From contig NZ_CP124549.1 of the NCBI RefSeq assembly GCF_030253515.1, positions 1-32,000 of the forward strand: DNA of 32,000 bases, written 5' to 3'. Source of the DNA: Candidatus Nanosynbacter lyticus. Its GTDB lineage: Bacteria; Patescibacteriota; Saccharimonadia; Saccharimonadales; Saccharimonadaceae. The first letter of the stretch is position 1; every line of letters begins with the position of its first letter. Both the position numbers and the translations under genes were made by a program. Below, one piece after another: positions 2,710-25,181 of this stretch. The notes beneath the pieces are model-generated. The model was not told where the DNA came from and searched no databases. It saw nothing but the letters and a program-made list of their open reading frames with translations.

Positions 2710-2710
2710 G

Positions 2711-3520
2711 CTAGTTGAGTGATCGACCGTCTTGAGTAATGGCAATTCGTCGACTATTATCGTAATCAATAGTGATATTGTAGGCTAATTTATCCTCAAC
2801 AGTAATAGTAAATGATAGCGTATTTTTTCCTGATGATGTATCACGTACGATATCTTTTATCGTTGTTTGTGTAGCGATACGTGATAGTTTGTGGTCATAA
2901 GAATAATCGCTCATGATTAGCTTCTCAATGTAGTCAGTGTCATTGCCGGTTAGTTGGTTAGATAATGAATTGCCGTACTGATCATTTTGGCCGCTCCAGT
3001 TGACAACTAGATACGGGCTTCGTAGTCCACGCATTCGTGAAAAGTCATCATTACAGCCAAAATAACCGTATATTAGCTGATCAGTTGGTAGGCATGAAAC
3101 GGTTGTACCATATTGATACTGGGCATCCTCGTCAAGATTGGTTTTTTGTGACCACGTATATTCGACAAGATACGATTGCTGTAGGCTTTTAATATCAACA
3201 ATGAAGTTAACGGTGTGGATGTCTTTCGCTTGATCATGAGTTTGCTTGAACGACCCGTCGCGGACAAGGATGTCTTTAATAGAGTTGTCCGGCAAATTGC
3301 CAGCGTAATTGTTACGGATGGCGGTATATAATGCGTGACGGATTGTTTCGAGGGTTTTAGCGTCGGTCGGTTTACCATTTGTATATGTACTGAGATTTTC
3401 GATATGCATTTCTCCACCAAGAGGGTTGCGTAGCAGTAGTATATAGGCAACCGTAGTGATAATAACAACACCAATAAACCCCAAGATAATGAAAATTAGT
3501 TTTTTATTATAGTGCAACAT
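2711..3520 (-). CDS. Bitopic membrane protein of unknown function (last gene of the T4SS-like block; candidate VirB8/TcpC-like)
   Basis: The ORF track gives 2711..3553. I prefer the ATG at 3520 (MLHYNKKLIFIILGFIGVVIITTVAYILLL), which overlaps the upstream gene by 14 nt. There is one N-terminal TM helix followed by about 240 aa containing two internally similar segments. GC is about 35% against about 50% for the window. The stop lies 1 nt from the dnaN stop (convergent). Confidence 0.7.
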   Translation of the reverse strand: MLHYNKKLIFIILGFIGVVIITTVAYILLLRNPLGGEMHIENLSTYTNGKPTDAKTLETIRHALYTAIRNNYAGNLPDNSIKDILVRDGSFKQTHDQAKDIHTVNFIVDIKSLQQSYLVEYTWSQKTNLDEDAQYQYGTTVSCLPTDQLIYGYFGCNDDFSRMRGLRSPYLVVNWSGQNDQYGNSLSNQLTGNDTDYIEKLIMSDYSYDHKLSRIATQTTIKDIVRDTSSGKNTLSFTITVEDKLAYNITIDYDNSRRIAITQDGRSLN

Positions 3521-4853
3521 TACCACCACCTCCACCTGTGCTTGCTCCAACATAACTTGCTACTGCCGACATGTCAACTTCTGGGTAGGCAAACTCATCT
3601 GGTAGGCGACCGAGCCACGCCTTTGTCTCGTTGATCTTACCTACGCGAATGAAACCAGATCCACCACCCGATTGTGTACCATCACCGCGCCCCTTACCGG
3701 GACCACTACAGCTCGCTTGGCCAACGATAACAGTATCACCGTGAATGCCGAGGACGACACCAGTATGTCCATACCGCCCACCGTTCCAGCTAAATATTGC
3801 TCCAACCTTTGGTGTTTTGCCGGTTGGCACGCGCCTATTGCTCCTTAAGTATGACACAACCGCCTCTCCATTTCCGGGTGTATAGACGCCTTTTGTAGAA
3901 GTGAACTTGTTTAAAAAGAATACAGAGAACGACACACAATTCGAGCCGCCACCATTACAATTATTCCACAGATAACCACCCATAGCCTTCTGGCTTTCAT
4001 TGTTCTTATTTTCGCCGTAATTCATCATGAATTTCTTTGCCTGCTCTTCGTTGAGGCCGCCTTCGGAGATGGTGCCGCCTCCACCTCCACTACCATCACT
4101 GCAGTTAGTAGCGGCACCAGAAGCTGCTGCGGCTGCGATAGAAGGATCTGGCTCCCAGCTCATGGCTTTGTTAGCATAAGCTGCGCGAATATCGGTTCGT
4201 GGGATACCAGCACCAAAGAACTTCTTTACCATAATAGAGGTTGCCTCGTTTACGTTGCCCGAGGCCGTCATTTCGGCAAGAACGTTTTTACGCGAGGTCG
4301 GTGCAAGATTCTGGAGCTGCCACCAGACGATAGCTAGTTGCACCTCGAGGCTGGTAACATCACCCTGGACGCCAGCCTGCTGTTGCCAATAAAGGACGGC
4401 TACGCCCGGGTCCCACTGGGCGATTCCCCAGGCATCACCCATACCAGCCGGTTTACTCGGGTTCCATGGGTGGTACTTACCGCCGGCCTTGAGCGGATTT
4501 GGCTCGGAGCCTTTATTTTGACGAAGAATTGGGTTACCTTTTGACTCCTGATATAAATTACCAACGATTGCTGCTGCAACAAACTTTGGCGCACCTTTGG
4601 ATATAAAGTAATTAAATGCTTTCTTTAGATTATCTTCGCCGACTAGCTCGCCTGCTGCCCCACTCGCTGACTGTGCAGCATTTGGTGAACAGTTTGTATC
4701 TTCAGAATTATTACTAAAAAGGATACTATTGTCTTCAAATGTCGCGCGCAGTTGATCGGTATTTAGTTCGGCAAATACCGGTGAGCTCCCAAAAAGCAGC
4801 GAAATAATTGATATAATAATAGCGACTCTTTGAAAGGCTAATTTTCGTTCCAT
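3507..4853 (-). CDS. Secreted two-domain peptidoglycan hydrolase (lysozyme-like N-domain + C-terminal CHAP-type cysteine peptidase/amidase); VirB1/CwlT analogue
   Basis: GAGGA lies 5 nt upstream of the ATG. The signal peptide is MERKLAFQRVAIIISIISLLFGSSPVFA. The N-domain motif AAAIVGNLYQESKGNP...GDAWGIAQWDPG resembles phage-tail-lysozyme-type muramidases. A Gly-rich linker follows. The C-domain has a Cys...His pattern (SNCVSFSVFFL ... GRYGHTGVVLG) typical of CHAP. Confidence 0.85.
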   Translation of the reverse strand: MERKLAFQRVAIIISIISLLFGSSPVFAELNTDQLRATFEDNSILFSNNSEDTNCSPNAAQSASGAAGELVGEDNLKKAFNYFISKGAPKFVAAAIVGNLYQESKGNPILRQNKGSEPNPLKAGGKYHPWNPSKPAGMGDAWGIAQWDPGVAVLYWQQQAGVQGDVTSLEVQLAIVWWQLQNLAPTSRKNVLAEMTASGNVNEATSIMVKKFFGAGIPRTDIRAAYANKAMSWEPDPSIAAAAASGAATNCSDGSGGGGGTISEGGLNEEQAKKFMMNYGENKNNESQKAMGGYLWNNCNGGGSNCVSFSVFFLNKFTSTKGVYTPGNGEAVVSYLRSNRRVPTGKTPKVGAIFSWNGGRYGHTGVVLGIHGDTVIVGQASCSGPGKGRGDGTQSGGGSGFIRVGKINETKAWLGRLPDEFAYPEVDMSAVASYVGASTGGGGGNVAL

Positions 4854-5317
4854 AATTTCCTCGCTCGCTCTCTCGCGTTATCCGGTAGTATGTTACCACC
4901 AGCTGCCCGCCACGCCTCCCTGCCGGTTGAATATGCGATGAGCTGTAAATTGCCGTGATCATCTTTCTTTAATATGACATATAATGTGCGCGATGGATTG
5001 GTAGTCGTAACATTGGCAGCAATTGCTTTCAGAAAAATCCACTCACTTTCGAAGTCAATTTTTTCGAGAAATGTTTGTCGCGGTGTTGTCGTAACTTGTA
5101 GGTTGGTAAAAGCAGCGGAAGCCGATTCGCGCAATGTTTTTTCTGGGATTGTAAGATTTTTAGTTGGTCCTGGGTTTAATGGAGTGTTGTTGCGGATAAC
5201 AACTAGAATAATGACGATTATCAGCGCAATCGCCGCGACGCACAGTCCGGCTATAATCGCCAACGATCGCCTATCGTCACGTGGCTGCTGGGAGTAATAA
5301 CTCATGTTATCTATCAT
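4838..5317 (-). CDS. Bitopic membrane protein, unknown function (T4SS-like block)
   Basis: The ATG at 5317 forms an ATGA overlap with the upstream stop, and GGGGAG lies 12 nt upstream. There is a single TM helix (LAIIAGLCVAAIALIIVIILVVI) followed by a domain of about 110 aa. The 3' end overlaps the next gene by 16 nt. Confidence 0.65.
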   Translation of the reverse strand: MIDNMSYYSQQPRDDRRSLAIIAGLCVAAIALIIVIILVVIRNNTPLNPGPTKNLTIPEKTLRESASAAFTNLQVTTTPRQTFLEKIDFESEWIFLKAIAANVTTTNPSRTLYVILKKDDHGNLQLIAYSTGREAWRAAGGNILPDNARERARKLWNEN

Positions 5318-5808
5318 AACGCTACTGGCTCCCCACTTGCGGTTCGAATGGTGATGGTGTTATCCGCGATAGTAAACTGCACGACATACGCGGTGGTGTT
5401 CTTAACGGTCACGGTGAATGATATTACCCTTTCATCAAAAACTACATTAGTGATCGCTCCAGACACAAGGGTATCAGAGGTCGCATGTTTACTTACGTAG
5501 TGGCGAAGAATCGCTGCAACGAGTGAATTTTGAGTGTCATCATTGATGAATGCGGCCAGTGTTTTATTGGCGCTATTCTTCGTATCCCACCCGCTGAGGA
5601 TCAACTGCTGTGTTGTTGGCTGGCCACTGCCGCCGGTTGGTCCCTCGTACTGTTTACCCTCTGATTGGTTGTTATTAGGCGATTGCGATGGGGCCGATGG
5701 GTTGGTGGGTGGTAGCAGTAGAATGACGACAACGACTGAGGCGGAGAGTATGATGAATGATAACGTAGCAATAATTGCTGTTTTGTGTGCTAAAAGGAAC
5801 TCTCTCAC
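5314..5808 (-). CDS. Bitopic membrane protein, unknown function (T4SS-like block)
   Basis: The ORF track start is the GTG at 5850. I prefer the GTG at 5808, which forms a GTGA overlap with the upstream stop and has GGAGGG 8 nt upstream. There is one TM helix (AIIATLSFIILSASVVVVILLL) and a P/Q/G-rich linker. The C-terminal domain ends ISFTVTVKNTTAYVVQFTIADNTITI, which is similar to the C-terminus of the 2711-3520 product. Confidence 0.65.
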   Translation of the reverse strand: MREFLLAHKTAIIATLSFIILSASVVVVILLLPPTNPSAPSQSPNNNQSEGKQYEGPTGGSGQPTTQQLILSGWDTKNSANKTLAAFINDDTQNSLVAAILRHYVSKHATSDTLVSGAITNVVFDERVISFTVTVKNTTAYVVQFTIADNTITIRTASGEPVAL

Positions 5809-8800
5809 GATGACCGCCCTCCAACTTTTTTCGGTCCAGTGATCACCCACATACCTGTTGTGCCATCATTCTCTTCATTTTTACCCTTGTCTGCCTTTTC
5901 ACCAAAGTGAAATTCGCTCGCCGCAAAGCCGGCTTTGTTTTCGGTGTTGGAGCGCTTATTCGGATCACCAACGAGGAACTTACCGTCAGCAGTTTTTCCG
6001 CGAATAAACATAATGTGACCACCCTGGATAAACGGTGTTTTCCCGCCAACTGATATAAGAACTAGGCCACCTTCGGACAGACCTCTTGAGGCATTCTCGG
6101 CGCTTGGCTGTACTTTCTTGATCGTAATACCGAACTTATCCTTAAATAGCTGAGCTTTACTTTCCCATATCCAATTCGAACCACAATGCTCACCACCCCT
6201 CTGGCCATCGTTTTGATAGAAAAACTCAGCCATTTTTTCTGGATCAACGGTTGTATTGCCGACAGTCGAGATGATAGCAGCCATAGAGGTTGGCGCACAG
6301 CCACAATCACCAATATTACCAATGCCGTATTTTTTATTCTTCCATGGCTCTTCTGACTGATAGTACATCTTAATTTGATCGAGATTTTCGCCGGTTTGGG
6401 AGTTTGAGGCGCCATTAGACTGATTACTGCCGACAAGCTCTTCGTCGTCTTCGCCGTTAATGGAATTTTGGATCTGATAATCCATTAAAAAGACGGAGAT
6501 GGCGGCGAGGGTTCTGCTGTCGGCGGTGTCAATTGAGCCAAAGTCGGTGTCGGCGCTTGTTTTGCCATTTTCGCTTTCGACAACAGGACGATAACCGCCG
6601 CTGGAGAGTTTGCCAGTAGTTTGCCTGGTACTAGATTCATCGAGAACGCAGCCGGTCATATTGGTCGAGTATTCTGCTGAGCTGACATCGCTACAAGATT
6701 CAATAAACGATTTTAGCGGCGTATTGTCTTTTATATATCCTTTACTGACCAATGCCTCAATGTCGTCTTCTTTTTCTATATCAACACTTTCATCAATCCA
6801 CCCAGCCTTTGCCAGGATCTCTCGTGCCTCCTCAACACCCATATCGTCCTGCTGTTTAGTGAAGCCCGTACACCCAGCGCCGGCAAAGTTCACTGCCGGG
6901 GTAACGTCGCGGCCATTAACCTCGGACTTTAAGCCAAAGTCTTCGGCATAACCACAGTAATTTGCCGAGTAGTTATCGCTCGCGTTGGCGGCGGTTCCAA
7001 ATGAAAGCGCCATTGCTGGGAGGTGGATGATATTAGAGAAGATTGATGCGAATGAATTATTATAACTACCAGACTGGAGCATCATCTGACGCAGGTTAAA
7101 GGTGAGGCTGCCGAGGAATGTGTGGCGACTAGAGGTGTCGAATGGGCTGAGTGAGGCGATGTCGTATTCACGTTGTTGTCGCTCGTTAGCGAGACGAACT
7201 TGATTAAAACTAGAGAGGCCTTTTTTAGACAATACCGGCAGATGTTTTGCTGAGTTTGCTGCTGCAAAAAATGCACCAGCCGATGTTCCGAGCATATCAC
7301 CAAACTCTTTACCCTTAGCATTTGCAATGTCATTATCGCCAACGATGGCTTTGAATATCGCCTGAACAGCTGCACTTGTGGCCGCTTTGGTTATTTCGCC
7401 TATAATGACAGAGGTAATCTGAGAGATTGCGAAATCACCCACTGCCTTGACAATACCGCCGATAAGTGTTGGCGCTGCTAGGGCTGTCGCTGCTGCATCG
7501 ACGGCCATGGCTGTGTACATAGCCTGGTCGCTCATGATGACGTTACAGGCGCCCTTGGTGGCATCTTTATATTGATACATCGCTTGGATGGCTGGATGAC
7601 GACGAACTTTAAGTCCGGGTGCAAATTTTTCAGATAGCGGAACTTTATTTTTATTGACACCCATAGCAGAGAGCAGGAGTGGTGAATCAAGGGCTGACTC
7701 GGCTTTGCCATTACTGCCTTTGTGGCGAGAGGTTAACATTGTGCCAACAAACTCCATACCAGCAGCAGTCATTGCGAAGCGCGGATCAAGGCCTGAAGCC
7801 TTTTGTTGTGATCCTGGTGAGAGAACGATATTAGCTATCGGTGGGATAAGTGCCGCCATTTGCGCTCCAGCGACACCGCCAACGATAAAGTCGGGCACAT
7901 GTCCAGCGATACAGGCACCTGTTGCGAGGGTATAGGCTGAGCCAGCACGCCGCGCACGCTTCAGTTTTTTGTCGGCATGCGTTTTGGCTTTGTTACCAGA
8001 CTCTTCGATGTCTGCTTGGTTTACTTTATCGTCAGCACGATATTCTTCAGATGGGGTCTTCTTTTTTTCACCGTCAGAACCGGTTGGGCTTTGATTTTGT
8101 CGGTTATTCTTTTTGTTTTCTTCGGCCCACGTGGCCGCTCCCCCGTTTCGCTTTATGCGCTTAAACTTACTAAAGAACTTTTTGGCGAGATATTTACTTG
8201 ACCAAACGCGAAATCGCATGTTAAATGCACCGGATCGACCAAGGACTTTGGCGGCAAGACCACGGTTTTCTTTAGCACTTAAAAAACCGGGCAAGTCTTG
8301 AGCCTTGATATGTTTACCGTCAACGATGAACTTTTCTGGGTTACCACTGGGGTAGCCAAGCCTTTTTAGATTAAGCGGTTTGCCTTTAGCATCGGCCGCC
8401 ACGACACCGTGCTTTGCGAGACGGCGTAAACCTTTATTTGAAATCGTGCCGGCCTTGCACTTCATCTTTTTACTATTGCAAACGCCGGGCTTTGTGATCA
8501 TATTCGCCAAGTTTTTTGCGAGACGTCGTTCAGAGACAACTGAACTAGAATCGTTGCCAAGAGTTAGGTTTTCCATGAGATTGATGAGCATTGATGCCGG
8601 ACCAAACACCGAAGCCAGTAGACCACCACCAACACCAAATAATATCATTAAACCAGCGATACCGCCGCGTTTTTTAGCAAGAGCGATGAGCTTAGCGGCT
8701 TGACTTTTGGGCATAGTTCGATTAGATTTTTCTGGTTGATAAAAACCACTTTGTGGTCCTTGATTTGCAGTACCATTCTCTTTGTCTGTTATTTTTTGTG

Positions 8801-9020
8801 CAGCACCCTCGATGTTGGCATCTCGATTCGCCTGGTAGCCGAACTGATCATTATCAAGGCCATCATCTCGTAGACTAGCCTCTATCTGGTCGAGCGCTGC
8901 TTGCTCACCAGCATTCAGTTGCTCCGATGAATCATCATGTAGCTCAAACGGGTTTGCTCGCCCATCAGCATCAGGATCGGTCGTGGTGTCAAATCGCGGC
9001 GGTTTTGTTGCTGTTGCCAT
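5805..9020 (-). CDS. Large (1071 aa) membrane protein with C-terminal papain-like (C39-like) cysteine peptidase domain; T4SS-associated
   Basis: GGAGG lies immediately upstream of the ATG at 9020. The N-terminus is acidic and cytoplasmic. The first TM is GGIAGLMILFGVGGGLLASVFG, followed by several Ala/Gly-rich hydrophobic segments. In the C-terminal approximately 135 aa (about 5961-6368), the motif NIGDCGCAPTSMAAII ... QGGHIMFIRG fits a Cys/His papain-fold peptidase. It sits directly downstream of VirB4, the position held by ConG/Orf15-type proteins in Gram-positive systems. Confidence 0.8.
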   Translation of the reverse strand: MATATKPPRFDTTTDPDADGRANPFELHDDSSEQLNAGEQAALDQIEASLRDDGLDNDQFGYQANRDANIEGAAQKITDKENGTANQGPQSGFYQPEKSNRTMPKSQAAKLIALAKKRGGIAGLMILFGVGGGLLASVFGPASMLINLMENLTLGNDSSSVVSERRLAKNLANMITKPGVCNSKKMKCKAGTISNKGLRRLAKHGVVAADAKGKPLNLKRLGYPSGNPEKFIVDGKHIKAQDLPGFLSAKENRGLAAKVLGRSGAFNMRFRVWSSKYLAKKFFSKFKRIKRNGGAATWAEENKKNNRQNQSPTGSDGEKKKTPSEEYRADDKVNQADIEESGNKAKTHADKKLKRARRAGSAYTLATGACIAGHVPDFIVGGVAGAQMAALIPPIANIVLSPGSQQKASGLDPRFAMTAAGMEFVGTMLTSRHKGSNGKAESALDSPLLLSAMGVNKNKVPLSEKFAPGLKVRRHPAIQAMYQYKDATKGACNVIMSDQAMYTAMAVDAAATALAAPTLIGGIVKAVGDFAISQITSVIIGEITKAATSAAVQAIFKAIVGDNDIANAKGKEFGDMLGTSAGAFFAAANSAKHLPVLSKKGLSSFNQVRLANERQQREYDIASLSPFDTSSRHTFLGSLTFNLRQMMLQSGSYNNSFASIFSNIIHLPAMALSFGTAANASDNYSANYCGYAEDFGLKSEVNGRDVTPAVNFAGAGCTGFTKQQDDMGVEEAREILAKAGWIDESVDIEKEDDIEALVSKGYIKDNTPLKSFIESCSDVSSAEYSTNMTGCVLDESSTRQTTGKLSSGGYRPVVESENGKTSADTDFGSIDTADSRTLAAISVFLMDYQIQNSINGEDDEELVGSNQSNGASNSQTGENLDQIKMYYQSEEPWKNKKYGIGNIGDCGCAPTSMAAIISTVGNTTVDPEKMAEFFYQNDGQRGGEHCGSNWIWESKAQLFKDKFGITIKKVQPSAENASRGLSEGGLVLISVGGKTPFIQGGHIMFIRGKTADGKFLVGDPNKRSNTENKAGFAASEFHFGEKADKGKNEENDGTTGMWVITGPKKVGGRSS

Positions 9021-9035
9021 ATGCCTCCAATTATA

Positions 9036-10898
9036 CTACACTGCCCCGTACCCGCCGAGCGGTGTTTCTGATGGTAGTTGGTGTCGAGAGATCGGCGAGG
9101 TGTTGATGAGTTCGTATTCGGTGTCGCTAGCCTGGATCTGAATGTGGACGTGGTTTTGTCCGGCAAAGAATAACCCCTGCCCCACGGGGAAATTGGCAAG
9201 GCGTTTTTGCTCTTCCTCGGTTAGCTTAAAGACGCTGGAAAGGACATCAACGGCGCTGGTTGACTGCTTGAGTAGCAGCTGCATCGATGAGTTGGCGACA
9301 ATGGCACGGCCCATCTTGCTGCCCATAAAGTCCTCGACGTCCTGGGTGATGGTCGTGAGGCCGAGCTGGTATTTGCGGGCACGCTTGGCGAGAGAAAACA
9401 GGAAGTTGGCCGAGTCGTCGTAGCGCATCAGCTGCCACGCCTCATCGACGATGAGCATGCGTCGTTTTTGGTCGGTACGTGTAATGTTCCAGATGTGATT
9501 GAGCACAATATACATAGCGATCGGCCGCAGCTCGTCCTCGAGGTCGCGGATATTAAAGACCACCATGGTGTTATTGATATCAATATTTGACTGCTGGCTA
9601 AAGATACCAGCGAAAGTACCGGAGGTAAATTTGCGCAGCCGCTGAGCGAGGCTTGGCCCGGTGCCACCCATATGAAGCAGTGTATCGTAGAGATCGGCAA
9701 TGGTTGGTGGTGTCGAATGGTGGGTCAATGGGTCAGCGGTGATGCCGACGCGGGCGTACGTATCAATCAGTGCCTGGTCAATATCAGCCTCCTCGGCAGC
9801 CGTCAGTCCAGCGATAATCTGCCCGCCCGCCGTCGTCTGTGAGCCACCCAGCATCTGCCGCAGCAACCCGTGCAGCGTCACTAAATTCGCCCTCAGTGCA
9901 TCGTCTGCCTCATCGGTATCAATCACCCGCGGCAGATCAAACGGATTGATGCGGGTATCGCTGTTGAGGCTGAGTCGAATGTAGCTACCGCCAACGGCGT
10001 CGGACAATTTCTGGTATTCGTTTTCTGGGTCGATGATCACGATGTCCGAGCCAAGCATCATGCTGCGCAGCGCCTCGAGCTTGACCGTGAACGACTTACC
10101 GGCACCAGATTTCGCGAACACTACCATATTAGCATTCTCGAGGGAAAAGCGGTCAAAAATTACCAAGCCGTTGTTGTGCATATTGATACCATAGAGCACG
10201 CCCTTGCCGTCGGTCAGGTCGGCCGAGGTAAACGGAAAGCTGGTGGAAATAGCGCCGGTATTCATGTTGCGGCGAACCTGGAGCTGGTCGGTCAGCTGTG
10301 GAATAGTGCTATTGAGGCCCTGCTCCTGTTGAGCTGAGGCAACCTTAGAAAACACCAGCTGCTGGCCAAAAATTGTCTCGATCTTGTGTTGGATAAAGTT
10401 GAGCTCATCAATGCTGTCGGCATAAATCGTGATGTAAAGGCCAAAGCGGAAGAACTTTTCCGAGCCGATCTGTAGCTGATTGCGTAGTTCCTCGGCGTCC
10501 TGCAATGCCGCTTCCATGGCTGGGTCGCGCACCTTGCCCTTCTCGGAATTGATGCTAAGGCTGGCCTCGAGCTGAGTCACTTTCTTACGTAGGTTGTTGA
10601 GCACCACCTGGGTATCAACCGGGTAAATGAACATACTGATATCCAGCACCTCGTCGATGTTGATCACCGAGCTGAGCCAACCGGTGTATAGCTCGCGCGG
10701 ATACCCGTAGACGTACATGGTGCGGCCGTATTTTGAGCCGAGGCGGAAGTGGTCAGACTTGAGCTCGAGGCTGCTCGGAGCGATAAAGTCGCGCAAGGTT
10801 CTCACGCCAGTGAGAAAGGCCTGCTCAACCTCGGCCTGCTCGCGGGCCCGCTGTTGGGCGGCGATATCAATGGCGTCTAGCTTCTTTTTCCTAGCCAT
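9036..10898 (-). CDS. virB4: VirB4/TrsE-type T4SS ATPase (core and ATPase part)
   Basis: Walker A is FAKSGAGKSFTVK and Walker B is RRMLIVDEAWQLM. The middle region is typical of Gram-positive VirB4 (FIAPSSLELKSDHFRLGSKYGRTMYVYGYPRELYTGWL). The preferred start is the ATG at 10898 (MARKKKLD), with GGAGGAG 8 nt upstream. The frame stays open up to 10979, which is the ORF track start. Confidence 0.9.
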   Translation of the reverse strand: MARKKKLDAIDIAAQQRAREQAEVEQAFLTGVRTLRDFIAPSSLELKSDHFRLGSKYGRTMYVYGYPRELYTGWLSSVINIDEVLDISMFIYPVDTQVVLNNLRKKVTQLEASLSINSEKGKVRDPAMEAALQDAEELRNQLQIGSEKFFRFGLYITIYADSIDELNFIQHKIETIFGQQLVFSKVASAQQEQGLNSTIPQLTDQLQVRRNMNTGAISTSFPFTSADLTDGKGVLYGINMHNNGLVIFDRFSLENANMVVFAKSGAGKSFTVKLEALRSMMLGSDIVIIDPENEYQKLSDAVGGSYIRLSLNSDTRINPFDLPRVIDTDEADDALRANLVTLHGLLRQMLGGSQTTAGGQIIAGLTAAEEADIDQALIDTYARVGITADPLTHHSTPPTIADLYDTLLHMGGTGPSLAQRLRKFTSGTFAGIFSQQSNIDINNTMVVFNIRDLEDELRPIAMYIVLNHIWNITRTDQKRRMLIVDEAWQLMRYDDSANFLFSLAKRARKYQLGLTTITQDVEDFMGSKMGRAIVANSSMQLLLKQSTSAVDVLSSVFKLTEEEQKRLANFPVGQGLFFAGQNHVHIQIQASDTEYELINTSPISRHQLPSETPLGGYGAV

Positions 10899-11970: not shown

Positions 11971-11975
11971 CCCAC

Positions 11976-12875: not shown

Positions 12876-12884
12876 TGAGTATTA

Positions 12885-15518: not shown

Positions 15519-15543
15519 TTTTACAGAGAAAAGTCAATAGTTT

Positions 15544-18500
15544 TTAGCTGGCGGTAGGTGGATTGCTGTTTCGATTATTGCGATTATTTTGATTATTTGG
15601 CGGTGCTGAAGGTGGGGATTGCGGTGGAGCTGGCCCTCTGCCTGTTCCGGCGACGAATGTTCGCCCCGTTGGGGTGTCTGATGGGACTGCCTCGGTGATA
15701 TTGTTAATTTCTACCGTAGAATTAATCGCATTTTTGACGTCATCTGCTGTTACGCCGCTCATGTCATGCGGTACTCGCAGCTCCTGAGGTTCGGCTACTC
15801 TATCGCTGTTTCGTATATTTTCAAGCTCTTTGCGCGCACTACCCGATATCGAGGTATTAATACGTTTATTGTCAAGCACTGAGGCTGCCCTCTCGGCGGA
15901 GACACCGACCATTTTCTGGCCACCCTTAGTGAATTCAGTTTCACCAGCGACCTTGATGGCACTTGATGTCTGTCGTGCCAATTTTTCATCACTTAATCCG
16001 CTGACCCCCTTGGCGGTCAGTTCGGCCATTTGTTGCTGGCTAAAGCTGACCGAGGTTGCTCCGTCCTGTTCCATCTGGTCGATAGCCGTTCTACCCATTT
16101 CAAACAGACCGGCATGGTCATCTTTCATTCTGGTAAGGGTTTCTGCCATGCGGCGGTTGCTGATGGTTCCACCACCCTGGAGATACTCGTACATTTGTTC
16201 GGCACCGCGCTTACCAGTTGACTCTAATTTCTTAAAGGCAATGTGTTTAAGTATCTCGTTGTCTCCAGCGCCTCTCAGTGCAGCGGCCGCATCGCCGTTG
16301 TACCGATAATCAAGCATACGCTCTGCTGTCTTGCGCTCTTCGTCATCAACCGCATCCTGACCTTCGGCAGCACTGCGAATACCATAATCTCCTCCGAGGA
16401 AGCGGTTATTTGCTAAGGCGCTCTCGTTAAATCTTTTGCTGAACCGAGATTTTCGATTTCTCCAGAATTTATCTAGGGCTCCGGTGCCCTCCCATGCCCC
16501 GGCCCGCATGAGGGCCTTGCGGCGCTGTCGTCGCTGCTTGCGGAATTTTTGCATCTCGCCAAGCCGTGAACTATCATACCTATCTTTTGCCCAGTTTCTG
16601 GCGCTGCCACCGAGACTACCGCCAGCGTTGTTGATGTGCTGACCGATCGCCCCGGCAACGTCGATAGCTTTCTTGAGGACACTCCACACGGCGATGAGTG
16701 GCAGGACTTTGATTAGCTCACCGACAATCTGCATGATCGTGTCATTTCCACCCCCGGCCTTAACGACAGCCCCCGCCAGTATGCCGCCACCGAACAGTAG
16801 GCCGATTGTCGGAAAGACCATGAGTAGTCCCACAAAGATTGAGCGCCATTTACTAAATAATTTTTCGGTATTTGGCAGCAGAAAGGCAACAAAAGCCAGC
16901 GGTGAGATGACGATGAGGATGATGATGAGCGCTTTGCGGGCGATTAACAGCACAGCGACGGTCGCCATAACAACTAGCCCAGAAACAAGCGCCCCAATCA
17001 AGACTGCGAGGGCGAGAATCCCGGCGGTGCCTGCGGCAAGGATGGTTAAGGCAAAGCCCCCCCATGTACCACGTCCTTGACCTGATTGAAAAATTTCATT
17101 TGCTCGGGTAATCTCGTCGCCAATGCCGCCAATGCCAGCACGCAGGCTATAGCCGAGGATGTTAGACAGGTCAACGGCAATTTGACAGATGTAAATTGAT
17201 ACGTTCACGAGGATTGCAGCGATGATAAGGCGAGGCAGCATCTTTTTAATGCCGTAGTTTGAGATACCAAAGCCAGTGAGCTGAGAGATAATGATCGCTA
17301 AGAACATAATAATGAACGCACCATTGGCAATATTGCGCATAATTCCCCAGGCTGCTTGCACCTCACCTCCAGAGGCGAGGCCCGGCTCAATCTTTAGGAA
17401 GTTATCGGCGATCATGGCAAAAGCCGCGTCTGAAATATCAGCCAAGAAATTAACGACTGGACAAATGAGCCAACCGAGGTCTTTGACGGCACACTCTGGC
17501 TTTTTCTCGTCGCCCCCGCTCTGGCCAGAGGGGGTGTCGGCGGAGATACCAGAGAGGGCGCTTTTTAGCTCACCATCGGAATAATTTGACTGTTTGGCGA
17601 TACACTTTATATATTCATCAGAACTCGCCACGGCACCACTTGACGGCATCTTATCCTTACAAGCGTTCATCCAGCTGTCAACTTGTTGTTTACATATTTG
17701 CTCCGCTGGCCCTCCGACGCCTCCGCCGTTTTTCTCGATACATTTTTTTAGGAGAGTGTCATAAACGGCCTTGCGGGTATTATCGGCGGCTTCGGTTTTT
17801 GCTGATTTTGCGGCTGCTTCAGCGTTGTCTGATGCCCACTGTGCAATCTCCGCACATGACATCTCTGTTTTTGCACCACCAGAAGGACCATAAGGCGAGT
17901 CAGCTCCATGAAACATACGAACCCTTTTACCTGCATCCGGGAGATAAAAATATCCATAAGCTGCCGTACTGTCAGTTAAAGCAACCGCTGTTTTTTTATT
18001 GCGCTGATCGGCCTTTATGTCATTACTTGCGGCGTCATCCCCGCTATCATATCCTCGCCACTCGGCCTTACAACCAGCGTTTTGGGCCGACAAGAGTGCC
18101 GCCATCGCCGTGGAATAATTAACCAATGCCGAGTCGAACTTTAGGCTTTTACCAGCCTTTTTTTCAAGAACCTGAATTGCGTACGTGCCCCTGTCCCTTG
18201 GTATATTCCACCTACCACCGCTGTACTCACCCTTGGTAATATTGCTAATACAGTCAAGGCCGGCGTTATCTCGCCACTCACCCTTTAGCGCGCAGAACAT
18301 GTCGGTAAAAGAACTGTAGCCAAATGTATCTCGTGTGGCGGACACTAGTTCTTTACAGCTAAACTGCCCATCGTCACCGTCGGCAACTGGACCGACGGTA
18401 GTAATAGTGGTGAAGCTGCCGCCCCAATCACCGCTGGCAATTCTTGCTGGGGTGAGTCCACTATCAAATCCTTGACGATGACTAATACAGTTGCTCATGG

Positions 18501-18684
18501 CCAACGCGAGAGAGCGCTGTTTGACTTGGGCGAGATATGGCGAATAATCAAGCCGCGCCCGAGCCGCGTTAGCGGTTGGCGACAGCGCAAAAAACGTCAT
18601 GAGCATCGGAACGACTAATAGTGCGGCCAGCCCAACCAAGGTAATGCGAATACGTCGATGCGGGGTCTTTTTTTGCGTAAGCAT
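15544..18684 (-). CDS. VirB6/TrbL-like polytopic membrane protein, paralogue A (1046 aa) with Cys-rich N-terminal exodomain
   Basis: The signal peptide is KKTPHRRIRITLVGLAALLVVPMLMTFFALSPTANA. An exodomain of about 400 aa carries about 14 Cys. The conserved element PECAVKDLGWLICPV precedes the TM core shared with paralogue B. The cytoplasmic tail of about 370 aa ends in a P/N-rich tract. Confidence 0.7.
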   Translation of the reverse strand: MLTQKKTPHRRIRITLVGLAALLVVPMLMTFFALSPTANAARARLDYSPYLAQVKQRSLALAMSNCISHRQGFDSGLTPARIASGDWGGSFTTITTVGPVADGDDGQFSCKELVSATRDTFGYSSFTDMFCALKGEWRDNAGLDCISNITKGEYSGGRWNIPRDRGTYAIQVLEKKAGKSLKFDSALVNYSTAMAALLSAQNAGCKAEWRGYDSGDDAASNDIKADQRNKKTAVALTDSTAAYGYFYLPDAGKRVRMFHGADSPYGPSGGAKTEMSCAEIAQWASDNAEAAAKSAKTEAADNTRKAVYDTLLKKCIEKNGGGVGGPAEQICKQQVDSWMNACKDKMPSSGAVASSDEYIKCIAKQSNYSDGELKSALSGISADTPSGQSGGDEKKPECAVKDLGWLICPVVNFLADISDAAFAMIADNFLKIEPGLASGGEVQAAWGIMRNIANGAFIIMFLAIIISQLTGFGISNYGIKKMLPRLIIAAILVNVSIYICQIAVDLSNILGYSLRAGIGGIGDEITRANEIFQSGQGRGTWGGFALTILAAGTAGILALAVLIGALVSGLVVMATVAVLLIARKALIIILIVISPLAFVAFLLPNTEKLFSKWRSIFVGLLMVFPTIGLLFGGGILAGAVVKAGGGNDTIMQIVGELIKVLPLIAVWSVLKKAIDVAGAIGQHINNAGGSLGGSARNWAKDRYDSSRLGEMQKFRKQRRQRRKALMRAGAWEGTGALDKFWRNRKSRFSKRFNESALANNRFLGGDYGIRSAAEGQDAVDDEERKTAERMLDYRYNGDAAAALRGAGDNEILKHIAFKKLESTGKRGAEQMYEYLQGGGTISNRRMAETLTRMKDDHAGLFEMGRTAIDQMEQDGATSVSFSQQQMAELTAKGVSGLSDEKLARQTSSAIKVAGETEFTKGGQKMVGVSAERAASVLDNKRINTSISGSARKELENIRNSDRVAEPQELRVPHDMSGVTADDVKNAINSTVEINNITEAVPSDTPTGRTFVAGTGRGPAPPQSPPSAPPNNQNNRNNRNSNPPTAS

Positions 18685-18693
18685 TATGAGAAT

Positions 18694-18722
18694 ATATTAC
18701 CACGCTTATGCTAGTAATTCAA
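18694..18722 (-). promoter_or_regulatory. Putative promoter of the T4SS-like operon (TTGAAT-17-TAATAT, TG-extended)
   Basis: The minus strand reads TTGAAT (18722-18717), a 17-nt spacer ending TGG, then TAATAT (18699-18694). Only 9 nt separate the -10 from the ATG at 18684, and no SD is present. This is the geometry of a leaderless or near-leaderless transcript. Confidence 0.35.
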
Positions 18723-18747
18723 AAAGAGGGGCTCATCCCCTCTTTTT
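18721..18747 (-). terminator. Rho-independent terminator after the lipoprotein gene
   Basis: The sequence is AAAAAGAGGGG-CTCAT-CCCCTCTTTTT: a perfect 6-7 bp GC-rich stem and 5-nt loop flanked by A5 and T5. It could work in both directions. It lies 35 nt downstream of the 18782 stop. Confidence 0.7.
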
Positions 18748-18781
18748 GGTATGTTGCTATGCTGAGTGCGACCAGCTCACT

Positions 18782-19759
18782 TTAGGAGTCGACACCGCTG
18801 TAGCCAGTAACCTCGTCGTCGACAATTTGCCACAGATCACCGTTCTTAACCACCCTGAAAAGAGAACCGGTAGTTACACCATTGGTAATCGTTGATTCAT
18901 AAACAAGCTGGAGGCCTTGCGTCGGTAGTGTTTCGCCAGTCTTTGGGTCCACATAGGGCTTGGCTTCTGCAAACCTTACCTTTAGTACCTTAAACATTTC
19001 GGAGCCGGGTACATTTTTTTGATAGCCGCTCTCTTCCTTCTTATCCTTAGCATCCAGGAGTGCCACAATAGTCTTTCTGGCGGCATATTCTGAAGTTGAT
19101 ATCTTCCCGCTCCGCAGCATATCATCTAGAGCAGACTTCCTTAGCTCAGGATTCCCATAAAATGCCGCAGATGTAACCATTCTTGCAAAGTCAGGATCCC
19201 ACGGACCAGTGTCAAAACCTGCAACCACGGGACCGAGTATTTTGGCTGCAACTTCTTCGGCGGAGTCTGTTTCCGATGCGGGCTCTGTGCAGTATTTGCC
19301 AGGCTTAACGGCCGCCCCCGACGGATTATATAAGTCATTATTTGGGCTTTTGGTTCTTCCCCATATCGTGTCCTTCTTAAGTGTCTCCCTATACGGCACT
19401 AAGCGCTTTTCTAGTGGAAGGTTGGCAAACCTCTCTGGGGTTATGTCCTTGAACTCCTCCCTGACTTGATCGTATTTCTCCTCGGCTAGATCCTTTGGAT
19501 CAACAGTCTCAGACGGTGATGGTGAGGCAGATGGTGACTCTGATGGGTCTAATGAAGCGCTTGATGATGGGCTTTTCTCTGGTACTGCTAAGCGATCACC
19601 CCCACCACAGCCCGCAAGGCCCACTACAACTGTAGCGCCGAGAGTAACCCCGGCTAAAGCCTTTTTAAGCTTATCCTTAGCCCTCTCAAGAAGAGACGGC
19701 TTGTCAAGAGACGGACCGTCATTTAATGAACTACTTGGGTCATGGTTGTATCCTTCCAT
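18782..19759 (-). CDS. Lipoprotein, unknown function
   Basis: The lipobox is VVVGLAG-C (LAGC) after a hydrophobic stretch. An S/P-rich linker (SPSSSASLDPSESPSASPSPSE) follows, then a globular domain of about 220 aa. The 30-aa N-terminal region before the signal is unusually long, so the start is uncertain. Confidence 0.72.
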   Translation of the reverse strand: MEGYNHDPSSSLNDGPSLDKPSLLERAKDKLKKALAGVTLGATVVVGLAGCGGGDRLAVPEKSPSSSASLDPSESPSASPSPSETVDPKDLAEEKYDQVREEFKDITPERFANLPLEKRLVPYRETLKKDTIWGRTKSPNNDLYNPSGAAVKPGKYCTEPASETDSAEEVAAKILGPVVAGFDTGPWDPDFARMVTSAAFYGNPELRKSALDDMLRSGKISTSEYAARKTIVALLDAKDKKEESGYQKNVPGSEMFKVLKVRFAEAKPYVDPKTGETLPTQGLQLVYESTITNGVTTGSLFRVVKNGDLWQIVDDEVTGYSGVDS

Positions 19760-19955: not shown

Positions 19956-20033
19956 TGGCGCGCCCGACCGGATTCGAACCGGCGATCTCCTCCGTGACAG
20001 GGAGGCGTGATAGGCCAACTTCACTACGGGCGC
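19956..20033 (-). tRNA. tRNA-Asp(GUC): tRNA-Asp (anticodon GUC), CCA encoded
   Basis: The reverse complement is GCGCCCGTAGTGAAGTTGGCCTATCACGCCTCCCTGTCACGGAGGAGATCGCCGGTTCGAATCCGGTCGGGCGCGCCA. The acceptor stem is 7 bp. The anticodon stem is CCTCC/GGAGG with loop CTGTCAC. The T-arm is GCCGG-TTCGAAT-CCGGT. Confidence 0.95.
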
Positions 20034-20082
20034 ATAACTTTCCGTATGATAGCAAACTTTTATGGCTTTTTCAAGAAATCGT

Positions 20083-20111
20083 TTGCATTTTTCCCGCCAC
20101 TATTTTACAAT
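20083..20111 (+). promoter_or_regulatory. Putative promoter of the pilin operon (TTGCAT-17-TACAAT)
   Basis: TTGCAT lies at 20083-20088, followed by a 17-nt spacer and TACAAT at 20106-20111. The ATG of the first pilin gene is 19 nt downstream. Confidence 0.45.
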
Positions 20112-20130
20112 TTAGGGTAAGAGATCCGTT

Positions 20131-20508
20131 ATGACAAAAAGAAATATTTTCATCACCGCTATCTTTCTCGCAACCATTATCTGCGGCGTCGTGCTGTCTG
20201 GTATGCCTGCGTTCGCTGATACTGAATGCGGCGGCGCAAAGACCTCGATCATTAATTGTAGCGGTGCGACTGGTGATGCTGCTATTCTCGGTATCATCAA
20301 AATGGTTATCCAGATCATGACTGCTGGTATCGGCATCTTGGCGGTCGGTACGGTGATATACGGCGGTATTCTCTATTCTGCGTCTGGCGGTAGTCCAGAC
20401 AATATCAAAAAGGCCAAAGAGCTCTGGGTTAACACTGCCATCGGTCTTCTTATCTTTGCATTTTTTGTAGCCATCACTAATTTCCTGATTCCTGGGGGGG
20501 TGTTCTGA
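20131..20508 (+). CDS. VirB2/TrbC-like T4SS pilin paralogue P1
   Basis: The 125-aa product has a signal peptide ending PAFA-DT and a Cys pair (TECGG...INCSG). Two hydrophobic helices flank the loop YGGILYSASGGSPDNIKKAKELW. Confidence 0.8.
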   Translation: MTKRNIFITAIFLATIICGVVLSGMPAFADTECGGAKTSIINCSGATGDAAILGIIKMVIQIMTAGIGILAVGTVIYGGILYSASGGSPDNIKKAKELWVNTAIGLLIFAFFVAITNFLIPGGVF

Positions 20509-20966
20509 TGAAGCATATTGTGATCGCGCTGGGGCTGATGATCGCGGGGTCACTGATGCTGTCGGTGATTCAAGCAACGCCGGCCAGCGCGGCCTGTGGC
20601 GGCAACATCTTGACGCTCAAGCCGTGGTACGACGGGCTGACCAAGTCGGATTGTAATCTCAAAGCGATTGTCGACAATAACGATAAGCGCGCCCAAAACG
20701 ATCCGGACAATTACGCCACGCTCAATGGCTTTATCTGGCGGGCGATACTGAATGTTGTCGAGGATTTGTTGCAGCTGGCGGGCTTTGTGACGGTCGGCTT
20801 TGTGATATACGGCGGCTTTTTGTACTTGACGAGCAATGGTGAGCCGGGACAGATGGCCAATGGCATGAAAACGGTGATTAATGCGGCGATCGGCCTGGTG
20901 ATTGCTATCGCCTCGGTGGCGCTGGTGAATGTCGTGGCTGACGGATTGGGGTTGCCACGATCATGA
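20508..20966 (+). CDS. VirB2/TrbC-like T4SS pilin paralogue P2 (longest variable region)
   Basis: The start overlaps the P1 stop (TGATG). The 152-aa product has a signal peptide ending ASA-AC, a Cys pair, and a variable segment of about 65 aa. The conserved core is VIYGGFLYLTSNGEPGQMANGMKTVINAAIGLVIAI. Confidence 0.78.
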   Translation: MKHIVIALGLMIAGSLMLSVIQATPASAACGGNILTLKPWYDGLTKSDCNLKAIVDNNDKRAQNDPDNYATLNGFIWRAILNVVEDLLQLAGFVTVGFVIYGGFLYLTSNGEPGQMANGMKTVINAAIGLVIAIASVALVNVVADGLGLPRS

Positions 20967-21262
20967 TGCGATTTGTAGCCGGTGTATTGGGGTCGCCAGA
21001 TTCGCTGGGCATTCCGACGAACGGTGCTTCGGCGGATGCACTGGGCAACATCCTCAATACGGTGTATTTCTTTGCCGGGGCGATCGCGATTTTGATGTTG
21101 GTGCTGGCCGGTATCAATTACGCCAATTCGGGCGGCGACACCAACAAGCTCACCAAGGCGAAAAACACCATCCTTGGTACCGTTATCGGCATTATTATCA
21201 TCCTCTCCGCATTTCTCATTACTAACTTTGTCATTAGTGGCATGAAAGGATCGGCAATATGA
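20963..21262 (+). CDS. VirB2/TrbC-like pilin paralogue P3 (no obvious signal peptide)
   Basis: There is an ATGA overlap with P2. The 99-aa product has the core LAGINYANSGGDTNKLTKAKNTILGTVIGIIIIL. Its N-terminus (MMRFVAGVLGSPDSLGIPTNGAS) lacks a clear hydrophobic signal. Confidence 0.7.
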   Translation: MMRFVAGVLGSPDSLGIPTNGASADALGNILNTVYFFAGAIAILMLVLAGINYANSGGDTNKLTKAKNTILGTVIGIIIILSAFLITNFVISGMKGSAI

Positions 21263-21624
21263 AAAAACTCGTAGTCATTATCGGCGTGATAGCGGCGCTC
21301 ATTGCCCCGTTGGTAGTCACCTCAAATGTATCCGCCCAGAGTGTCGACATTTACGGCGCCTGCTCGGGCTCCAGTGGTGAAGTCTGTAAAAACCGTGGCG
21401 CGACGGTACAGCCACTGTTTAGGAACCTCATCAATGCTATCTTGCTCATCCTCGGCGCCATTTCTGTCATCATGATCATCATTGGCGGCTTTCAGTATGT
21501 GACCTCGGCCGGCGACTCTAATAAGGTTAAAACTGCCAAGTCGACCATTATGTACGCGGTGATCGGTGTCGCCGTAGCGCTTCTATCGTATGCCATTGTT
21601 GATTTTGTGTTTGGCAAAATATAA
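21259..21624 (+). CDS. VirB2/TrbC-like T4SS pilin paralogue P4
   Basis: There is an ATGA overlap with P3. The 121-aa product has a signal peptide ending VSA-QS and a Cys pair (GACSGSSGEVCKN). The core is IGGFQYVTSAGDSNKVKTAKSTIMYAVIGV. Confidence 0.82.
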   Translation: MKKLVVIIGVIAALIAPLVVTSNVSAQSVDIYGACSGSSGEVCKNRGATVQPLFRNLINAILLILGAISVIMIIIGGFQYVTSAGDSNKVKTAKSTIMYAVIGVAVALLSYAIVDFVFGKI

Positions 21625-21641
21625 GAAAAAAGGAGAAATGT

Positions 21642-22016
21642 ATGAAACGATATAGAAAAACCCTCGTAGCCGCCGTTTTGTCATTAGCGGTTGCTGTCGT
21701 GGCCGTCGTCATGCCGATCGCCCTGCCGTCCGCGTCGGCCCAATTTAAGAGCGGTTTGGATGCAGCTCGAACGGATGAGATGAGCACGAAGCCTATTGGC
21801 ACCACCATTGGCGAGGTGGTTAATATCTTTCTCTACTTCGTCGGTGCGGTGGCAGTTATCGTTGTGATCTGGGGCGGTTTTCAGTACATTACCTCGTCAG
21901 GCGATAGCCAGAAAGCGACCACTGCTAAAAACACCATCATGTACGCGGTGATCGGTATCGTTGTGGTGGTCATGTCGTACGCTATCGTTAACTGGGTCTT
22001 TGGCTTGTTTAAGTAG
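21642..22016 (+). CDS. VirB2/TrbC-like T4SS pilin paralogue P5
   Basis: An AGGAG SD is present. The 124-aa product has a signal peptide ending ASA-QF and no Cys. The core is WGGFQYITSSGDSQKATTAKNTIMYAVIGI. Confidence 0.82.
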   Translation: MKRYRKTLVAAVLSLAVAVVAVVMPIALPSASAQFKSGLDAARTDEMSTKPIGTTIGEVVNIFLYFVGAVAVIVVIWGGFQYITSSGDSQKATTAKNTIMYAVIGIVVVVMSYAIVNWVFGLFK

Positions 22017-22074
22017 CTAAATGATGATAGAATAACAGCTGAAACCATATCAAATAATAAACGAGGAATAAAGA

Positions 22075-22455
22075 ATGAACAAGTTAAAACTCATTGTTGT
22101 CGGCGTTGTGGCCACTCTGGCATTGGCATTTGCAACGGTCCCAGTAGCTCATGCAGACTACAACCTGGATAAGGGTATCAGTGACTCAAAGGGTGACCGG
22201 GTTGCCGAGAAGGTCGATGATCCACAGCAACTGGTCAAGGGTATCGTCAACGGTATTCTCTACTTCGTCGGTATCTTGTCAGTGATTATGTTGATCTGGG
22301 GCGGTATCCTTTACACGACTTCATCTGGTGACTCGAATAAGGTGACTACTGCTAAAAACACCATCATGTACGCAGTAATTGGTTTAGTGGTGGCGATCTT
22401 TGCCTATGCGATCGTTAACTTTGTTCTCACAACATCGCGCGGTGTAAGTTCATAA
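22075..22455 (+). CDS. VirB2/TrbC-like T4SS pilin paralogue P6
   Basis: A GAGGA SD is present. The 126-aa product has a signal peptide ending AHA-DY and no Cys. The core is WGGILYTTSSGDSNKVTTAKNTIMYAVIGL. Confidence 0.82.
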   Translation: MNKLKLIVVGVVATLALAFATVPVAHADYNLDKGISDSKGDRVAEKVDDPQQLVKGIVNGILYFVGILSVIMLIWGGILYTTSSGDSNKVTTAKNTIMYAVIGLVVAIFAYAIVNFVLTTSRGVSS

Positions 22456-22479
22456 ACCGCATCTTGTCTATGACAAATT

Positions 22480-22509: not shown

Positions 22510-22567
22510 CTGGTTGTCTGGCGGCGTCAAATACGACGACTACGACACTAACGGATTTGACGAAGGA

Positions 22568-25170: not shown

Positions 25171-25181
25171 GATGTCGTATC

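Follow-up and report, generated by a model that had tools for sequence, protein, structure and literature searches.

Gene content of the locus

We report an analysis of the first 32,000 nucleotides of contig NZ_CP124549.1 of Candidatus Nanosynbacter lyticus (this whole 32-kb stretch is referred to as the window), which carry a type IV secretion system (T4SS) encoded by a core operon of 11 successive minus-strand open reading frames (ORFs; 2711-19759) and a divergent operon of VirB2-type pilin genes. Pfam scans covered all ORFs of the window, and NCBIfam was searched as well with the T4SS genes. We hold it to be nearly certain that the locus is the vertically inherited chromosomal T4SS of the Patescibacteria clade in an oral, Nanosynbacter-like Saccharibacterium, and that its orthologue in Southlakia epibionticum (ML1) is SEML1_0004-0019. 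The system has already been published, every element of the argument made in an earlier, sequence-only reading of this DNA is in print, and it does not represent a new kind of system.

Transcribed from 19759, the core operon encodes a lipoprotein, two VirB6-like proteins of 1046 and 877 aa, a PrgI-family protein, a 359-aa TrsD-like protein and VirB4, followed by a 1071-aa protein with a Peptidase_C39_2 end, two single-helix proteins, a lysozyme-plus-CHAP hydrolase and a third single-helix protein. With corrected starts, the intergenic spacings from 2711 upward are -14, -16, -4, -4, +15, -8, +5, +9, +25 and +97 nt; the earlier description of consecutive genes that mostly overlap or lie fewer than 30 nt apart holds for the block, with the 97-nt gap before the lipoprotein gene as the exception. 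At the other end dnaN stops at 2709 and the final minus-strand stop begins at 2711, which leaves the single nucleotide between them that had been noted.

The VirB4 ATPase ORF (9036-10898, minus strand) matches the TraG P-loop family (Pfam, E 1.5e-27) and the NCBIfam model conju_CD1110 (E 8.7e-116; 388 bits, cutoff 325), of which positions 145-751 are covered. Its ATPase domain resembles the Thermoanaerobacter VirB4 structure PDB 4ag5 (E 1.9e-49) and retains intact Walker A (AKSGAGKS) and Walker B (MLIVDE) motifs, while the first approximately 145 positions of a full-length VirB4 are missing. Translation most likely begins at the ATG at 10898 (620 aa), which is preceded by a GGAGGA Shine-Dalgarno sequence and gives an 8-nt overlap with the upstream gene; the alignments of VirB4 from related genomes also begin at the residue encoded from 10898. 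The upstream TrsD-like ORF (10891-11970, minus strand; 359 aa) has a P/Q-rich N-terminus and a domain equivalent to the N-terminal segment of VirB4, and it matches conju_CD1110 at positions 1-121, VirB4_CagE at positions 19-176 (E 0.0057) and TrsD (E 6.6e-5), all in NCBIfam. Each of these matches is below its curated cutoff, yet they are colinear with and complementary to those of the ATPase ORF, and "two-piece VirB4", the term used in the sequence-only reading, is therefore a fair description. A sequence search of the TrsD-like ORF against PDB gave no match, its link to VirB4 coming from the NCBIfam profiles, and it adjoins virB4 in 56 of 56 loci whose contig extends far enough.

The PrgI/VirB3-like membrane protein (11976-12875, minus strand) is above the Pfam PrgI cutoff (E 5.5e-12; 46.5 bits against 27) and has a C-terminal extension of 200 aa. 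The two extended VirB6-like proteins, A (15544-18684, minus strand; 1046 aa) and B (12885-15518, minus strand; 877 aa), each comprise an N-terminal helix, an extracytoplasmic domain, a membrane core of 5-6 helices and a long hydrophilic tail. They are paralogues, with 33% identity over a membrane core of approximately 520 residues (E 9e-66). As a single protein only A matches Pfam TrbL (E 0.002 at full length, 2.4e-4 with its membrane core), while TrbL is matched by 20 of 52 non-redundant membrane cores drawn from both paralogues (best E 3e-6), and the only PDB chain found at E<1 with the VirB6 family profile is TrwI, the VirB6 of plasmid R388 (E 0.013).

The first gene of the core operon (18782-19759, minus strand) encodes a hypervariable 325-aa lipoprotein with an LAGC lipobox, the cysteine of which (Cys51) is invariant among its homologues; 24 homologues were found. 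Its AlphaFold2 (AF2) model is confident at residues ~90-320 (predicted local distance difference test, pLDDT, >90), and the best Foldseek matches are NTF2-like or PrgL-VirB8 proteins, all non-significant (E 0.08-1.4, TM score at most 0.46); the lipoprotein is possibly NTF2/VirB8-like. The three small bitopic proteins (2711-3520, 269 aa; 4838-5317, 159 aa; 5314-5808, 164 aa; all minus strand) have one N-terminal membrane helix each, which in the 159-aa protein spans residues 21-39 and is preceded by arginines. For the 269-aa protein, the last gene of the block, the longest ORF is 280 aa and the start was taken from the gene call in L081, one of the related loci; for the 164-aa protein the longest ORF is 178 aa. 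Neither the 269-aa nor the 159-aa protein had a match in Pfam, NCBIfam or PADLOC, and the PADLOC defence models matched none of the unassigned proteins of the locus. Exact or near-exact matches of the 164-aa protein, also annotated as 164 aa, are present in complete genomes of 0.82-0.86 Mb from Nanosynbacter lyticus and oral taxon 488 (GWK76_00030, FBF28_00030), and because these tags end in _00030 it is the sixth gene after dnaA. A PEGA-like protein at the position of the 269-aa protein in Nanosynbacter TM7-053 (locus L033) was considered as its counterpart and rejected, the two having no similarity.

The remaining two core genes encode predicted cell-wall enzymes. The 1071-aa protein (5805-9020, minus strand) begins with a disordered cytoplasmic N-terminus, which is followed by a membrane helix (~121-139) and by a helical, cysteine-rich, conserved core (~140-800); a conserved motif, AISVFLMDYQIQNSINGEDDEE (~840-861), is followed by an acidic linker and by an enzyme end that proved replaceable, in this case Peptidase_C39_2 at residues 882-1021 (Pfam E 2.7e-9). 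The other protein (3507-4853, minus strand) has an N-terminal signal-like helix followed by Phage_lysozyme2 (E 3e-23) and CHAP (E 2.1e-8), and is predicted to be a secreted two-domain cell-wall hydrolase, an analogue of VirB1, TraG and CwlT.

The divergent operon encodes six pilins on the plus strand (pil1 to pil6; 20131-20508, 20508-20966, 20963-21262, 21259-21624, 21642-22016 and 22075-22455), all of which reach the threshold of PF18895 (T4SS_pilin; E 6.5e-6 to 4e-15), pil1 exactly at it, and several match TrbC/VirB2 as well. Pairwise identities are 19-46%, and five of the six have a signal peptide and two hydrophobic helices; pil3 has no recognisable signal peptide. A seventh, unlinked VirB2-type pilin gene (26138-26623, minus strand; PF18895 E 7e-9) lies 3.7 kb outside the array; its product is 46% identical to pil6, and the gene overlaps a 197-aa single-helix ORF (25576-26169, minus strand) and adjoins a tRNA-Ser gene. 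Between the core and pilin operons sits a gene for tRNA-Asp (GTC; 19956-20033, minus strand; ARAGORN and Rfam) with a promoter-like site of its own.

Taken together, the component list of the sequence-only reading stood up to the analysis: a lipoprotein, a PrgI/VirB3-like protein, the two-piece VirB4, two VirB6/TrbL-like giants (with remote support from their paralogy, the TrbL matches across the family and TrwI), a large membrane protein with a papain-like peptidase end, three bitopic proteins, a lysozyme-like plus CHAP hydrolase, and six VirB2/TrbC-like pilins.

Chromosomal fixation and the module between virB4 and dnaN

The comparison set consisted of the best 80 of 573 VirB4 relatives in a species-representative genome collection, picked on VirB4 similarity; nearly all are labelled Saccharibacteria, Nanosynbacter or Saccharimonadales, and many are from oral metagenomes. 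The left neighbours dnaA (1-1347, plus strand; Bac_DnaA, E 3.7e-69) and dnaN (1609-2709, plus strand; DNA_pol3_beta domains) are conserved: 56 of the 80 fetched loci hold dnaA, dnaN, VirB4, the TrsD-like gene and PrgI together, and the order dnaA-dnaN-distal module-VirB4-TrsD-like-PrgI-two VirB6-like genes is constant wherever the flank sufficed, with pilins next where it was longer. Where dnaN falls within the fetched flank it lies 5.0-8.7 kb beyond virB4. VirB4 identity is 82-100% across the 80 Saccharimonadia loci and exceeds that of both DnaA and DnaN in 56 of 56 loci (medians 90.4%, 73.7% and 68.5%, respectively). Moreover, the tRNA-Asp gene occupies the same spot in 14 of 14 closer loci scanned and is absent from 6 of 6 more distant ones. 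The constant position, the conservation of VirB4 and the fixed tRNA-Asp argue for vertical inheritance of a chromosomal locus, and not for an integrative and conjugative element (ICE).

No relaxase, type IV coupling protein (T4CP), integrase, VirB7, VirB9, VirB10 or VirB11 was found in any ORF of the window, and there was no Pfam or NCBIfam match to VirB5. A search for att-like flanking direct or inverted repeats returned only pilin paralogy, tRNA T-arms and chance 16-mers, and a distant search of plasmids with the virB4-prgI DNA returned a single, trivial P-loop match of 174 nt, from which we conclude that virB4-prgI has no plasmid origin. The sequence-only reading had proposed a fixed, non-ICE machine derived from a T4SS, with a Gram-positive-type core and VirB2-type pilins and lacking an outer-membrane complex, VirB11, integrase and flanking direct repeats; the scans, the repeat search, the synteny survey that it had suggested and published work (PMC10633639, PMC12102498, PMC12857230) all agree with this. 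Its description of the apparatus as relaxase-less and coupling-protein-less is borne out for the window and is limited to it; Patescibacteria commonly have VirD4-like genes at a distance from virB4, and the one in ML1 is non-essential (PMC12102498).

At the DNA level the window was compared with five close relatives (L001, L002, L003, L004 and L006). In L001, L002 and L004, where VirB4 protein identity is 98-99% and dnaA-dnaN DNA identity 87-93%, a 6-kb module (2710-8853) is swapped for unrelated DNA: homology is lost precisely at the stop codon of dnaN (2709) and picks up again at 8854 (L001, L002) or 8989 (L004), approximately 55 or 10 codons into the gene for the 1071-aa protein. The alternative cassette contains two unrelated ORFs besides the genes for a lysozyme+M23 protein and for a 1023-aa protein with a Peptidase_M23 end, while L003 and L006 have the same cassette as the window. 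L033 has VanY at the end of the big protein, and its second enzyme combines SLT with CHAP/NlpC. The GC content of the cassette is 0.469, compared with 0.526 for the core. These comparisons indicate that the virB4-dnaN module acts as a replaceable cassette.

Replacement is also seen within the encoded enzymes. Across 66 loci the N-terminus of the big protein is kept and its central region is kept in two variants, with a motif of the type AAxSVLLxDFQxAQSxNGEDEE ahead of the acidic linker and the variable end. That end is VanY in approximately 33 loci, M23 in approximately 18, C39_2 in 4, NlpC/P60 in 4, CHAP in 2, Exo_endo_phos (EEP) in 3-4 and unassigned in 2; members of the family alignment (A3) include L001:11957-15028, L033:11872-14859, L070, L072, L079 and L060. 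A database search with the core only returned 86 homologues of 35-46% identity with the same spread at the C-terminus, namely VanY, M23, C39_2, EEP or no Pfam domain that was recognised. AF2 modelled the core with confidence as a mostly helical structure, in which many of the cysteines are invariant, and no structural relative was found in PDB or BFVD; names of tape-measure proteins among its BFVD matches were set aside as noise (E >0.3, TM <0.1), and the sequence profile of the family matched PDB entries only through the swapped VanY and M23 ends. In the second hydrolase Phage_lysozyme2 is kept in 25 of 39 non-redundant versions, and the partner domains include CHAP, C39_2, M23, C70, NlpC/P60, M15/VanY, Amidase_3, Exo_endo_phos, GDSL and, in one case together with CHAP, GH43. 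Versions with GH43, GDSL, Exo_endo_phos or Amidase_3 are found at L080:15738-17933, L022:15425-17218, L060:15797-18730, L076:11611-13686 and L058:8671-10569.

Two further segments of the locus vary among the five close relatives. For 12895-14010, which encodes the C-terminal third of the 877-aa VirB6 paralogue, three of the five have no homologous DNA, and for the lipoprotein-gene segment (18725-19723) homology is wholly or partly missing in all but L004, a mosaic pattern suggestive of recombination.

On the 3' side, the pilin array is followed by a convergent hsp20, a comF-type gene, rlmH, a GDSL-esterase gene, three tRNA genes, the seventh pilin gene, valS, a FemAB-type gene and tsaD. The order hsp20 then comF (23152-23916) is identical to that of SEML1_0020-0021. 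Two plus-strand ORFs (22464-22712 and 22722-23075, S/T-rich) were rejected as genes, being antisense to hsp20 (22568-23056, minus strand; E 2.6e-18). The longest ORF of the GDSL esterase (24298-25368, minus strand) crosses two tRNA-Ser genes (25182-25271 and 25295-25382), and its true start must therefore lie below 25182. Finally, a palindromic motif, CTTTTCACGTGAAAAG, occurs in three copies (29513-29530, 29845-29866 and 29887-29907), two just upstream of the valS start and one within valS, and may be a regulator binding site.

Proposed function and alternatives

On balance we lean towards a non-conjugative, host-directed conduit powered by VirB4, with outward protein delivery tentatively favoured over import. 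The core operon would provide a cytoplasmic-membrane translocon built from the PrgI/VirB3-like protein, the split VirB4 and the two extended VirB6 paralogues, and the divergent operon would provide Sec-exported VirB2-type pilins, which the translocon would polymerise into a filament or tube across the wall of the epibiont itself. The module downstream of virB4 would add two surface-exposed enzymes that cut cell-wall polymers, i.e. the ~1000-aa protein with its anchoring core and the lysozyme-based multidomain hydrolase, whose catalytic ends are exchanged between related lineages. We suggest that the envelope of the actinobacterial host is at least one target of these enzymes, because a Saccharibacterium offers no evident substrate for GH43, GDSL and EEP, which some relatives carry, and the peptidase types change between lineages. 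The outcome would be a conduit at the contact between epibiont and host that moves macromolecules, most probably proteins outward, and does not conjugate.

More tentatively, and as a possibility that we ourselves regard as doubtful, the ~1000-aa family may constitute a T4SS-associated scaffold and the virB4-dnaN module a swappable host-range cassette by which each lineage breaches the envelope of its actinobacterial host. If so, a previously undescribed scaffold would present interchangeable VanY, M23, C39_2, NlpC/P60, CHAP or EEP domains, the lysozyme-based hydrolase with partners such as GH43, GDSL, Amidase_3 and EEP would act alongside it, and recombination that exchanges the cassette would redirect the epibiont to a different host.

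Several points weigh against a host-directed conduit of this kind. Neither a substrate, an effector signal nor a pilus was observed. The profile scan, which the sequence-only reading had put forward as a check, gave matches reaching the cutoffs for VirB4, PrgI and the pilins, whereas the VirB6 and TrsD assignments rest on sub-threshold matches. Gram-positive conjugative T4SSs need peptidoglycan hydrolases of their own (PrgK, TraG, CwlT) to get through the donor wall, so the hydrolases at this locus could act only on the wall of the epibiont. Domain shuffling is common among cell-wall hydrolases and need not mean host specificity, and the genomes compared, with 87-93% identical flanking DNA, are related species and not strains, such that their own walls might differ. 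Finally, the conservation of VirB4 could be inflated, the loci having been chosen on VirB4 similarity.

The alternative that survives best, although we think it unlikely, is an apparatus that works inward and takes nucleotides, DNA, lipids and building blocks from the host, similar to ComB of Helicobacter pylori or the archaeal Ced system. The class lacks de novo synthesis of nucleotides, amino acids and fatty acids, and uptake through the T4SS has been proposed (PMC11665869, PMC12857230). In addition, comF follows the pilin array both in the window and in ML1, and envelope-degrading enzymes would be equally useful in extraction. However, neither components like ComB7-10 (the homologues of VirB7-10) nor Ced-specific ones were found in the locus, the matches of VirB4 to CedB and CedD are generic P-loop matches far below the cutoffs, and no T4SS is known to import small molecules. 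In ML1, moreover, comF (SEML1_0021) is non-essential, and cells lacking comEC are viable even though the T4SS is essential (PMC12857230); the essential role is therefore not DNA uptake linked to ComEC. Of the domesticated machine, possibly ComB-like, that the sequence-only reading had envisaged, the non-ICE part stands and the DNA import is weakened by this viable deletion.

Still less probable is that the T4SS core just assembles an adhesive VirB2-type filament, with the attendant wall remodelling, and translocates nothing. The seven divergent pilin paralogues and the lack of a T4CP in the locus would fit such a role, and pilin arrays across the phylum have been interpreted as an adaptation to different host surfaces (PMC12102498); type IV pili, however, already serve adhesion and motility in Saccharibacteria (PMC11665869), and the extreme conservation of VirB4 together with two large VirB6 paralogues points to an active channel, although pilus biogenesis would be compatible with it as well. 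An ordinary or decaying ICE with its relaxase, T4CP and integrase outside the window is close to refuted: VirB4 does belong to a family of Gram-positive conjugative ATPases (conju_CD1110), VirD4-like genes are present elsewhere in many Patescibacteria genomes (PMC12102498) and a tRNA gene lies inside the locus, but 56 related loci across the class have the same position with dnaA and dnaN, VirB4 exceeds DnaA in conservation, no integrase or att-like repeat is present within the window, the position of tRNA-Asp is fixed across the whole oral clade, and just 109 relaxases are known from thousands of Patescibacteria genomes (PMC12102498).

Few machines have been shown to be essential for an epibiotic, host-dependent life, and the Saccharibacteria T4SS is among them. 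A cytoplasmic motor that is nearly frozen in sequence, beside surface parts and envelope-degrading enzymes that are swapped as cassettes, suggests a handle on its role. If it is true that the enzymes cut the host wall, they would be candidate determinants of which Actinobacteria a given Saccharibacterium parasitises, an idea that is now testable because genetic tools for Saccharibacteria exist.

Comparison with known systems

In TM7x and most Saccharibacteria, McLean et al. 2020 described a T4SS region that comprises VirB4, VirB6, VirB2 and arrayed small secreted proteins (PMC7427843), and Wang et al. 2023 described SEML1_0006-0019 as an unusual T4SS, similar to Gram-positive conjugation systems, with essential pilins and without recognisable coupling or relaxase proteins (PMC10633639). 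By transposon sequencing (Tn-seq), SEML1_0004-0011 and 0013-0019 are essential in ML1, while 0012 and the flanking 0021 are non-essential (PMC10633639); the "essentially uncharacterised" of the sequence-only reading is thus overstated. A 2024 perspective calls the role of the T4SS "completely unknown" (PMC11665869), and a 2025 review counts these systems among "the most exciting newcomers" and speculates on a pilus conduit (PMC12857230); later functional, structural or cryo-electron tomography (cryo-ET) work on the Saccharibacteria T4SS was not found in the literature.

The phylum-wide survey by Quinonero-Coronel et al. 2025 reports a VirB4 clade related to MPF_FATA together with TrsD, PrgI/VirB3 and VirB6, VirB2 arrays of 2-11 genes with a mean identity of ~25%, proximity to dnaA/dnaN, near-absence of relaxases, and T4CP homologues mostly far from virB4 (PMC12102498). 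All of these hallmarks are common to the window locus, including the lack of a relaxase nearby. In that survey VirB1-like hydrolases are only sparsely associated with virB4, and the ~1000-aa family and the replacement of cassettes and domains are not described. Cassette and domain replacement were not found in the published descriptions consulted, nor was the higher conservation of VirB4 than of DnaA and DnaN; the former, beside the ~1000-aa scaffold family, represents modest new content.

With the VirB/D4-type systems of diderms (MPF_T) the window locus has only the VirB2 pilin in common. Xanthomonas reportedly possesses a bacteria-killing T4SS with peptidoglycan-hydrolase and lipase effectors (Souza et al. 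2015, cited in PMC7427843); VirD4 is required there, as are effectors whose C-terminal signal is recognisable. The Ptl system of Bordetella works without a coupling protein (PMC12102498). Both are likened to the window locus as T4SSs that act on another cell by means other than DNA transfer, as is proposed for the window locus, and by the association with polymorphic envelope-degrading enzymes; unlike the window locus, both are diderm VirB/D4-type systems with an outer-membrane core complex.

The likeness to MPF_FATA systems (pCF10 prgH-I-J-K-L, pGO1/pIP501 trsC-D-E/traC-D-E, CTn2 CD1110 and ICEBs1 CwlT) is closer. The order VirB6, VirB3-like, (TrsD), VirB4, large hydrolase and small bitopic protein is that of the window, the best VirB4 model is CD1110, the hydrolase has the same two-domain build of glycosidase plus peptidase, and VirB7, VirB9, VirB10 and VirB11 are lacking. 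Specifically, the two-piece VirB4 corresponds to the TrsD-plus-VirB4 arrangement of pGO1-type systems, and the gene for the 164-aa bitopic protein sits where that of the VirB8-like PrgL sits in pCF10, a likeness of position. The window locus differs in having no relaxase, T4CP, oriT or adhesin (PrgB), in being chromosomally fixed, in its duplicated and extended VirB6, and in having VirB2-type pilins, which MPF_FATA systems lack (PMC12857230).

The closest systems are those of ML1 and TM7x. In ML1 the order is dnaN, recF, 0004, 0005 (PEGA), 0006 (phage-tail lysozyme), 0007 (1113 aa), 0008 (VirB4), 0009, 0010 (PrgI), 0011, 0012 (NTF2-like), 0013 (TrbL/VirB6), 0014-0019 (pilins), 0020 (Hsp20) and 0021 (ComF) (PMC10633639). 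The window differs from it in that recF does not follow dnaN, in the domain content of the hydrolases, in the tRNA-Asp gene within the divergent promoter region, and in the VirB6 genes, which are adjacent with the hypervariable lipoprotein gene upstream, whereas ML1 has between them the non-essential gene for an NTF2-like (TraM/VirB8-like) protein with a twin-arginine translocation (TAT) signal. In both the ML1 and the TM7x loci the position after dnaA-dnaN and the gene order, through hsp20 and comF, are otherwise the same as in the window, and the ML1 locus (SEML1_0004-0021) is syntenic with that of the window gene for gene.

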